The notes: generated by a model from the letters alone, not told the origin. A stretch of DNA of 64,000 nucleotides from an uncultured Alphaproteobacteria bacterium (GCA_963760455.1 CAVXDM010000040.1:20015-84014), one strand, 5' to 3'. Shown: positions 24,840 through 25,850, counted from the stretch's first letter. Translations and numbers: made by a program.

Positions 24840-25850
24840 CATTAACGGGCGCGTGATTTGGTAATGCATTGAAAAGTAGTGGGGAATTATGGGGCCGTTT
24901 CCGGCGGAATAGTTAATGTTCGAGTTGCGGATATATTTAAGGGGATTCTGGGAGCGTGGAATCGCGGCCAAAAATGCGAAAAGATGCGTGGAAAGTGGCG
25001 CGTAGAAAATAGGAGGCCCGCGCGTTTACCAAGCCCGCATTTAGTGTGCCACGAGGGCACGGATTATTAGTGAATGAAAGTTTCACCCGGAGAGTAGTTG
25101 GTTAGCTCCGGTAGCTGACAGGCGGCTTGGCCGGGCAACTGGCCAAGCCGAAGCCCTGTGACAAAGGCCGCCTTGGGTGGCCGAGCGACCTAACGGGCCG
25201 TAACGTGAGTGAACTCTGAGCAGGCCTCGAAAGATTTAATGCGGATGCCGGCCCTCCTAAATGCAGGGGAAGGCTTGTACCGGCAGGGAAGCAACCAACA
25301 AGCGCACTTGCACGGGTCCGCCGGGGTAGTGGAGACGGCACGCCAGGAAAGTAATCCGGGTGCCTGCGCTCAAGTAGCGCGTCGTGCGGTAGCGCGCCGC
25401 CAAATTGGGAGACCCTTGCCGGTCAAGGCTCGCAGCCTAAACGCCGGAGTAGCTGGCGGACAGCAAGGGAGTCGGACAGGTGCATAGTACCGATGAAGCC
25501 GGGTAACTCCGGCGGAGGGAAGGCGCCTGACTTCTGGTATGCTTTTGAAGAGGGCACTGCTCGCTTCAGCTACGAAGCGGTCTTCGGGGAGTTGGGCGTC
25601 TACCGCCTGGCCCTGGATTGTAAGGCCGTCCGCCGATAGCGTTGATGTGAAGCCAGCCGGAAAGCCGGATGCGGGAAATCCGCACGTCCTGTTTGATGAG
25701 CGGGGAAGGGAAACGGGGCGATGCCGCATGGCCCACGCTACCGCGCCTCTCCTCGACCCTACCCATGACATGCGCTTAGTCGAAGGGAACGGCCCGTTAA
25801 GCCCCGCGGCTGCCGGGCCGGCATCGCGGCATTGAGATCCAGCCGAGGTT
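24840..25850 (+). ncRNA. Candidate large structured non-coding RNA of unknown class. Possibly an ORF-less group II intron-like element, a HEARO/GOLLD-type large ncRNA or a leader.
   Basis: About 1 kb has no ORF over 100 aa in any frame, which is unusual in a 65% GC genome. The sequence is purine-rich and its GC drops to about 55%. It has many short GC helices capped by GNRA-like loops, for example ggcttggcc-gggcaact-ggccaagcc at 25127-25152, agctccggtagct, ccgg-aaag-ccgg and gcgg-gaaa-uccgc at 25655-25685, the last resembling a group II domain V region. It does not match RNase P, tmRNA or SRP by eye. Confidence 0.3.

Follow-up and report, generated by a model that had tools for sequence, protein, structure and literature searches.

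A putative group II intron without its reverse-transcriptase gene, inserted in a repeated intergenic element of an uncultured alphaproteobacterium

Results

Identification of the intron

The DNA analysed here, called the window throughout, is a stretch of 64,000 nt (64 kb), taken on one strand, from an uncultured Alphaproteobacteria bacterium of the Hyphomicrobiales (GCA_963760455.1 CAVXDM010000040.1:20015-84014). Judged by homology, its positions 25044-25762 (plus strand) are a group II intron without its reverse-transcriptase (RT) gene. The element is 719 nt long, from GUGUG to GACCCUAC, and was delimited with Rfam models, homology blocks, the ends of the curated intron Ni.ha.I1 and a paralogous empty site. 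Taken as a whole, we consider it highly probable that the element is a class F-type group II intron from which the RT/maturase open reading frame (ORF) was deleted, that it belongs to a non-autonomous lineage mobilised in trans, and that the window copy is probably weakened.

When cmscan was run against Rfam, a check that had been proposed in an earlier sequence-only reading of the region, group II models were matched on the plus strand. RF02003 (group-II-D1D4-4) aligned over its full length (model positions 1-138) with 25068-25208, scoring 107.9 bits (gathering score 49, E=2e-24), and RF00029 (Intron_gpII, domains V and VI) matched 25660-25741 with 38.5 bits, just below its gathering score of 40. 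Elsewhere in the 64 kb no other Rfam match reached gathering score. In a blastn search of plasmids, 99 records, mostly from Rhizobiales, were found to carry ltrA preceded by a 5' ribozyme part about 70% identical to that of the window. Similarity to eight relatives that were fetched started at 25043/25044, stopped at about 25553, resumed at 25630-25648 and ended at 25762/25763; in six full-length relatives (1.9 kb) these two blocks lie about 1.3 kb apart. In the intron-encoded proteins (IEPs) of these full-length relatives, which are 440-466 aa long, RVT_1 and GIIM domains were detected but an endonuclease domain was not.

Among the relatives, L010 is the curated Ni.ha.I1 (CP000320 75444-77354, 1911 nt, 'g3, Bacterial F'), whose published ends, GTGCG... 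and ...GACTCTAC, correspond exactly by homology to 25044 and 25762. In each of the eight relatives the RF00029 match likewise stops at the counterpart of 25762. Since the homology ends, the curated ends and the ends of the relatives' RF00029 matches coincide, the intron was placed at 25044-25762; cmscan ended domain VI too early, at 25741, because of mispairs in the window copy. The GUGUG at 25044-25048, already pointed out in the sequence-only reading, aligned with GUGCG of the eight relatives, the C-to-U change at position 4 being compensated by a G-to-A change in the pairing strand, and about 618 nt separate the GUGUG from the domain-V-like hairpin downstream. The leading interpretation in that reading, an ORF-less group II intron with both of these landmarks, is thus borne out by the Rfam models, by end-to-end homology to ltrA introns and by the Ni.ha.I1 boundaries. 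The minimum free energy fold of the whole intron (z=-2.25 vs shuffles) was uninformative on the true structure and was left unused. By its RNA the intron appears closest to class F / g3, a class defined by IEP phylogeny together with an IIB-like RNA structure, and the IEP is deleted here.

The sequence-only reading had flagged a wider interval, 24840-25850, which is flanked by a minus-strand glyoxalase/VOC gene (start 24729) and a plus-strand DUF3829 gene (25970-26920). Exact look-ups found neither the VOC nor the DUF3829 protein on record. Only the intron within the flagged interval stands as the feature; a repeated spacer element and unremarkable intergenic sequence make up the rest. The interval is indeed poor in ORFs, the longest listed having 133 aa, although such a desert is not exceptional, as 55 of 630 sliding 1-kb windows were equally stop-rich. 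Equally ORF-poor 1-kb windows lie at about 33800-34800, 37500-38500, 45000-46100, 48600-49900 and 60800-61800, two of which hold copies of a roughly 190-nt element (49250-49439 and 61193-61376). The purine-rich composition was confirmed: the plus strand of the flagged interval has 56.5% purine compared with 50.2% for the whole window, and only 3.5% of windows of the same size are as skewed as the 719-nt intron (55.9%). GC content drops as described, from 63.1% in the window to 59.6% in the flagged stretch, but not to the figures given (about 65% and 55%). It is low only in the upstream spacer 24730-25043 (53.8%), the intron itself having 61.8%.

Ribozyme domains and exon recognition

Domains I-III, the base of domain IV, domain V and domain VI were all present in an end-to-end alignment with the 1.9-kb full-length relatives. 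The domain I core (25068-25208, plus strand) corresponds to the RF02003 match and includes a 9-bp stem, GGCUUGGCC/GGCCAAGCC, which the sequence-only reading had correctly located (25124-25132 / 25141-25149). The relatives scored 76-105 bits with RF02003, and the domain I score of the window copy was the highest of all copies.

Exon-binding site 1 (EBS1), UAAAUGC, was found in a terminal loop of domain I at 25258-25264 (plus strand), where it is complementary over 7 bp to intron-binding site 1 (IBS1), GCAUUUA, the last 7 nt of the 5' exon (25037-25043). In an unbiased screen in which each intron 6-mer column was tested against each exon offset, this loop paired with exon positions -1 to -6 ranked first, with 44/48 pairs formed in 8 sequences carrying 7 different loop sequences. 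The pairing also held in further copies, including L027, in which EBS1 and an unrelated exon form a perfect 9-bp pairing. An insertion of about 40 nt (25362-25401, plus strand), placed in a terminal loop by the alignments, is specific to the window's species and is missing from all full-length relatives and from the ORF-less copies L020 and L021; no second copy of it was found within the window.

Domain V (25662-25694, plus strand), as aligned by RF00029, has the AGC triad at 25663-25665, a 2-nt bulge and a GAAAU loop that is family-wide and common to Ni.ha.I1. Twelve of its 13 pairs are formed, the exception being a C25666.U25690 mismatch directly above the triad, at a place where 8/8 relatives have C-G. 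The double hairpin of the sequence-only reading located domain V correctly near 25660, but its 'ccgg-aaag-ccgg' part is not a genuine helix, as the latter CCGG provides domain V with its 5' strand. Domain VI (25698-25762, plus strand) has a bulged branch-point A at 25756 (-7, 7 nt from the 3' end) and the intron end ...UAC. Its helix covaries in the family, one pair occurring as AU, CG, GC and UA. In the window copy two A.C mismatches were found there, A25699.C25758, which adjoins the branch-site bulge, and A25707.C25749.

The strongest conservation in the family was found at 25467-25555 (alignment columns about 424-510), just upstream of the annotated IEP start. This block translates to KPGNSGGGK(A/D)PDFW.AFE.G and is in frame with the IEP in L001, has no ATG in several relatives and in L022 is called as an overlapping ORF of its own. 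Possible explanations are an N-terminal extension, an upstream ORF, or the RNA-level conservation of a protein-binding site in domain IVa.

The remnant reading frame in domain IV

A reading frame of 48 codons (25493-25639, plus strand) was identified in domain IV by tblastn, BLASTP and junction alignment. Its N-terminal part of about 22 codons, beginning at the ATG at 25493, matches the conserved leader MKPGNSGGGKAPDFWYAFEEG, with 17/21 identities to the N-terminus of the L001 IEP in tblastn. The frame then runs on as TARFSYEAVFGELGVYRLALDCKAVRR to a stop, and the last 26 codons or so correspond to the RT/maturase C-terminus in an in-frame fusion; BLASTP gave 10/16 identities to residues 409-424 of the 440-aa L013 IEP (E=3e-4). 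Detectable IEP residues are thus limited to 21 at the N-terminus and about 16-26 at the C-terminus. The deletion junction lies near 25555|25556, and about 1.2 kb of domain IV is missing, comprising the RT and nearly all of the maturase domain.

No Pfam domain was found in the 48-codon remnant, and when the IEPs of five relatives were used as tblastn queries only the 21-aa N-terminal remnant was recovered in the whole 64 kb, in agreement with the earlier statement that no RT ORF is present. Since only this remnant without Pfam domains survives and no RT is encoded in the window, the element was classed as ORF-less and non-autonomous. A decayed protein gene, which the sequence-only reading had named as an outcome that would overturn it, is present only in the trivial sense that this remnant derives from the intron's own ORF.

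The insertion site and the repeated element

The intron interrupts one copy of an element of about 190 nt. The 5' part of this copy (copy A) is the 5' exon at 24903-25043 (plus strand), ending in the IBS1 GCATTTA at 25037-25043, and its 3' part is the 3' exon at 25763-25813 (plus strand), as recognised by the ligated-exon match and an nhmmer profile. The same profile detected three uninterrupted copies, at 49250-49439 (minus strand, copy B, E=4.6e-51), 61193-61376 (plus strand) and 30577-30762 (minus strand). With copy B as the empty-site control, the ligated exons matched 49412-49249 across the junction with 69.6% identity over 168 nt (blastn, E=2.6e-11). Copy B is contiguous through the insertion point (...GAATTTA CCATGACC...), and the uninterrupted copies run through as ...ATTTA CCATGA.... 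As this internal empty site is contiguous across the junction, no target duplication accompanied the insertion. Insertion without target duplication, together with 7-bp EBS1 pairing to the exon, is the signature that reverse splicing would leave.

The conserved blocks of the element are GGTTAA..TATATTTAACGGG, GTTTACCAT, ATTTA^CCATGA and CGTTAAG. A gene on the same strand lies just downstream of only two of the four copies. The upstream spacer and the element had no match in the plasmid collection, Rfam gave none on the uninterrupted copies, and neither a conserved ORF nor a conserved fold was detected in the element (RNAalifold, -4.5 kcal/mol with a positive covariation term). An interpretation of the element as a structured small RNA is consequently unsupported, given the absence of an Rfam match and of a conserved fold. 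Candidates for its nature are a promoter module, a protein-binding array, a small RNA or a repeat resembling miniature inverted-repeat transposable elements.

The same 3' flank as that of the window intron was found in L021, L029 and L020. An initial interpretation of L021 and L029 as orthologous, vertically inherited insertions with co-evolution of EBS1 and IBS1 in place was dropped, because these flanks belong to the multi-copy element. No orthologous empty site could be obtained from three DUF3829 loci (74-76% aa identity) in Hyphomicrobiales/Alphaproteobacteria metagenome-assembled genomes, in which upstream synteny was lost.

Related copies and conservation of base pairs

ORF-less siblings were found by searching a protein collection with the 48-aa remnant. 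Two of the contigs, L025 and L026, are from the same species, being 99% identical to the window over 9.5 kb with the same gene order; L026 has an extra insertion sequence (IS) upstream. This IS (L026 3049-4410, with a DDE_Tnp_1/DUF772 transposase) lies between the VOC gene and the element/intron and is absent from the window and L025; its site corresponds to about 24903-24915 of the window, and about 13 nt are apparently duplicated.

Related remnant ORFs lie on contigs with ORF-less introns of two lineages. Lineage A comprises L020 and L021, of 749 nt each, which share 92% identity with one another and 83% with the window copy, and L029, in which most of domain I is deleted; its copies sit in the same repeated-element family as the window copy. 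Lineage B consists of L027 and the 5'-truncated L028, which have unrelated contexts. The 5' breakpoint of the deletion coincides in the two lineages, at Ni.ha.I1 positions 554-558. Compared with L020 and L021, the window copy has lost about 28 further remnant codons on the 5' side and has kept more of the C-terminal remnant, and the base of its domain IV is 85-92% identical to L028 and L029. On alignment, a second deletion between AGGC microhomologies would suffice to turn the junction of an L021-like ancestor into that of the window copy.

Seven full-length relatives alone supplied a consensus structure of 165 pairs, of which 132 fall in the 5' part and 33 in domains V/VI. Broken pairs in these two parts numbered 6 and 3 in the window copy, 6 and 1 in L021, 8 and 0 in L020, and 1-8 and 0-1 in the other relatives. 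L020 and L021 diverged after loss of the ORF, since they have a common deletion junction. Between them we counted 6 compensatory double changes, 9 pair-preserving single changes and 3-4 broken pairs in each, whereas under a neutral simulation, in which substitutions were matched in number and spectrum, a mean of 0.6-0.7 doubles would be expected, along with 13-17 broken pairs (P<=1e-4). The window copy and L021 differed by 8 double changes compared with about 0.9 expected. This excess indicates that the ORF-less lineage was kept foldable and evolved as a working ribozyme, which would imply continued splicing and/or retromobility and hence a protein supplied in trans.

The domains V/VI of nine sequences were also compared on a hand-drawn structure of 29 pairs. 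The window copy kept 26/29 pairs and all 8 relatives kept 29/29; overall 98.9% of cells were paired, four pairs covaried, and all three unpaired cells were those of the window copy. Its RF00029 score was the lowest of the 9 copies, the 8 relatives scoring 41-48.3. L025 and L026 show exactly the same mispairs and insertion, indicating that these defects are fixed in the species.

Two members of the family were noted in passing. L003 1502-2347 (Microvirga ossetica plasmid unnamed3, NZ_CP016618.1) is an 846-nt ORF-truncated copy between LysR and ribose ABC transporter genes. It is like the window intron in being intergenic with most of the ORF deleted, and differs in having an independent deletion, a retained 82-aa maturase fragment and 29/29 domain V/VI pairs. 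In L002 (Bradyrhizobium septentrionale plasmid, NZ_CP088284.1 265217-268794) two ltrA genes are arranged head to tail, and the 3' end of one intron is followed by the 5' part of the next within about 580 nt, representing tandem or nested full-length copies.

Discussion

Proposed history and its difficulties

We propose that the ORF would have been lost once, early in the ORF-less lineage, and that the intron would afterwards have survived and multiplied as a non-autonomous retroelement. An RT/maturase from a full-length relative may splice and mobilise it in trans, as in Thermosynechococcus elongatus, and the conserved base of domain IV (25467-25555) may be the binding site of this protein. 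By analogy, the ORF-less intron is probably dependent on a protein supplied in trans. More tentatively, and with the balance of probability against it, the copies may form an old ORF-less class F sub-lineage acting as a non-autonomous retroelement, with lineage A specialised on the 190-nt element and EBS1 tracking a variable IBS1, which would be an undescribed two-tier mobile or repeated system.

Several observations weigh against this account or parts of it. No full-length partner intron or RT gene that could supply the postulated trans-acting protein was found within the 64-kb window. The deletion junction of the window copy differs from that of L020 and L021, so that an independent deletion from a full-length ancestor is possible, and the nested-deletion scenario is based on a microhomology of 4 nt and on the proximity, to within about 15 nt, of the 3' breakpoints. 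A metagenome scan with the pattern CCTGACTTCTGG N30-60 TTYGGNGARYTNGG gave 5 matches, none of them intron-related and all attributable to chance. The compensatory excess could partly stem from rounds of retromobility rather than from change in place. A pairing of EBS2 with IBS2 was not found, as the systematic screen gave no second signal and hand-picked candidates failed across the family. As regards weakening of the window copy, its 5' part is as well paired as those of the relatives (6/132 broken vs 1-8) with the top domain I score, and a single domain V C.U or domain VI A.C mismatch alone does not prove loss of splicing.

Activity of the window copy

From the domain V/VI mispairs, the roughly 40-nt insertion and the additional shortening of the remnant ORF we conclude, with moderate confidence, that the window copy is probably impaired in splicing, weakened and perhaps inactive. 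That the same ORF-less intron is instead still fully active, splicing accurately, mobilisable by a related RT/maturase and tolerating the mispairs and the insertion, is a possibility that we rate as the less credible one. Its 5' part retains 126/132 consensus pairs and the highest RF02003 score, EBS1 and IBS1 pair perfectly over 7 bp, the domain IV base is retained as in L028 and L029, the roughly 40-nt insertion is located in a terminal loop, and in three genomes of this species the copy is fixed, with 99% conservation. However, all three non-canonical pairs seen in domains V/VI of nine sequences are in this copy, one of them adjoining the catalytic triad and another the branch-site bulge, and in this copy alone RF00029 falls below gathering score. 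Furthermore, an intron lying in an intergenic paralog of a multi-copy element would be under little selection for splicing.

Other explanations

Co-option of the intron RNA, independent of splicing and mobility, is very unlikely, whether to serve the DUF3829 gene as a structured leader or regulator or to be included in an element-encoded RNA. Such a role would fit the orientation that the intron shares with the DUF3829 gene and with a promoter-like TATATT block of the element near 24925, and it would also fit the structural constraint on the ORF-less lineage. This constraint, however, spans the whole ribozyme including EBS1-IBS1 and domains V/VI, as splicing and mobility require, and a sigma-70-like site lies between the intron and the gene at 25832-25859. 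Moreover, the three metagenome-assembled DUF3829 loci have no intron and their homology starts only at 25862-25875, the other three element copies are likewise without an intron, and the element has no conserved fold. For the long structured leader mentioned in the sequence-only reading no supporting evidence was found. Finally, another class of large structured RNA (HEARO, GOLLD, ROOL or raiA, as had been listed) or an ordinary protein-gene remnant has a negligible probability and was rejected: composition speaks for it (purine-rich, ORF-poor, many GNRA-capped stems), but cmscan of 23500-27500 at E<=1 returned only group II models besides a chance BjrC68 match on the opposite strand (E=0.47), none of the four named classes matched there or at gathering score anywhere in the window, the ORFs of the region had no Pfam match, and the whole of 25044-25762 is explained by group II intron homology.

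Comparison with known introns

The trans-mobilised class F-type intron proposed here can be compared most directly with Ni.ha.I1 of Nitrobacter hamburgensis X14 plasmid 1, which is listed as bacterial class F, 'g3' variety (Toro & Martinez-Abarca 2013, PMC3552965). Both introns match RF02003 and RF00029, the latter just below gathering score in the window copy, are 71% identical in the 5' ribozyme part and 89% in domain V and its surroundings, and have in common the 5' GUG(C/U)G, the 3' ...GAC(U/C)CUAC, the architecture of domains V/VI and the EBS1 loop. Ni.ha.I1 differs in its size of 1911 nt and its 440-aa RT-X protein, compared with 719 nt and a 48-codon remnant, and in its location in an IS4/IS5-family transposase gene, whereas the window intron is located in a non-coding repeated element. 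The three domain V/VI mispairs and the roughly 40-nt insertion are found in the window intron and not in Ni.ha.I1.

With the ORF-less introns of T. elongatus the window lineage shares the loss of a large part of domain IV, traces of both ends of the ORF that can still be recognised, and several diverged copies with a common breakpoint. The host there is a cyanobacterium and here a member of the Hyphomicrobiales, and the intron class is presumably a different one. The T. elongatus introns (TeI3 families) arose by a single deletion that left N- and C-terminal ORF remnants and are mobilised by an IEP in trans (Mohr et al. 2010, PMC2882425). This mobility was demonstrated by experiment, whereas for the window lineage it is inferred; moreover, 17 copies in one genome and known driver IEPs were described there (PMC2882425), compared with one copy in 64 kb here.

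Bacterial ORF-less introns are 'comparatively rare' and almost always found beside a related ORF-containing intron, and intact group II intron copies are fewer than truncated or inactivated ones (PMC3245105). That intron remnants can persist for long in intergenic regions of Rhizobiales is documented for the RmInt1-like FRE652 of Sinorhizobium (PMC4181065), which is a fragment, unlike the complete ribozyme in the window.

The intron explains a gene-free stretch of 1 kb that annotation pipelines leave blank or to which they give a spurious 48-aa hypothetical protein. The domain V/VI model of Rfam alone would miss it, because this copy scores below gathering threshold. It adds a class F-type case from the Hyphomicrobiales to the small number of natural ORF-less bacterial group II introns on record. 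The ORF-less state is apparently old, common to diverged copies and under structural selection, the same pattern that inspired the idea of driver IEPs and a common splicing apparatus in Thermosynechococcus. The element is of a known bacterial kind, and the current understanding of group II introns is unchanged. The unannotated repeated spacer element that serves as intron target is a lead of its own and the most open thread of this work.

Additional features of the window

A tandem repeat of the (GGC GGT TGC) type, rich in Gly and Cys codons, was found at 19711-19826, just upstream of a YcaO cyclodehydratase gene (19953-22388), and a ThcOx-like gene is located at 22331-23641. The repeat is probably the precursor peptide region of a thiazole/oxazole-modified microcin (TOMM) locus.

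Two families of palindromic GC-rich intergenic repeats were also identified, both REP/RIME-like and unrelated to the intron. Copies of the first, CGTCATCCCGGAAACG...CCGGGATGACG, lie at 33077-33176, 36171-36269, 52413-52467, 53167-53266, 58098-58197 and 63729-63763, and copies of the second, CCCCTCACCC...GGGGAGAGGG, at 4040-4150, 26934-26987, 59976-60091 and 63087-63213.

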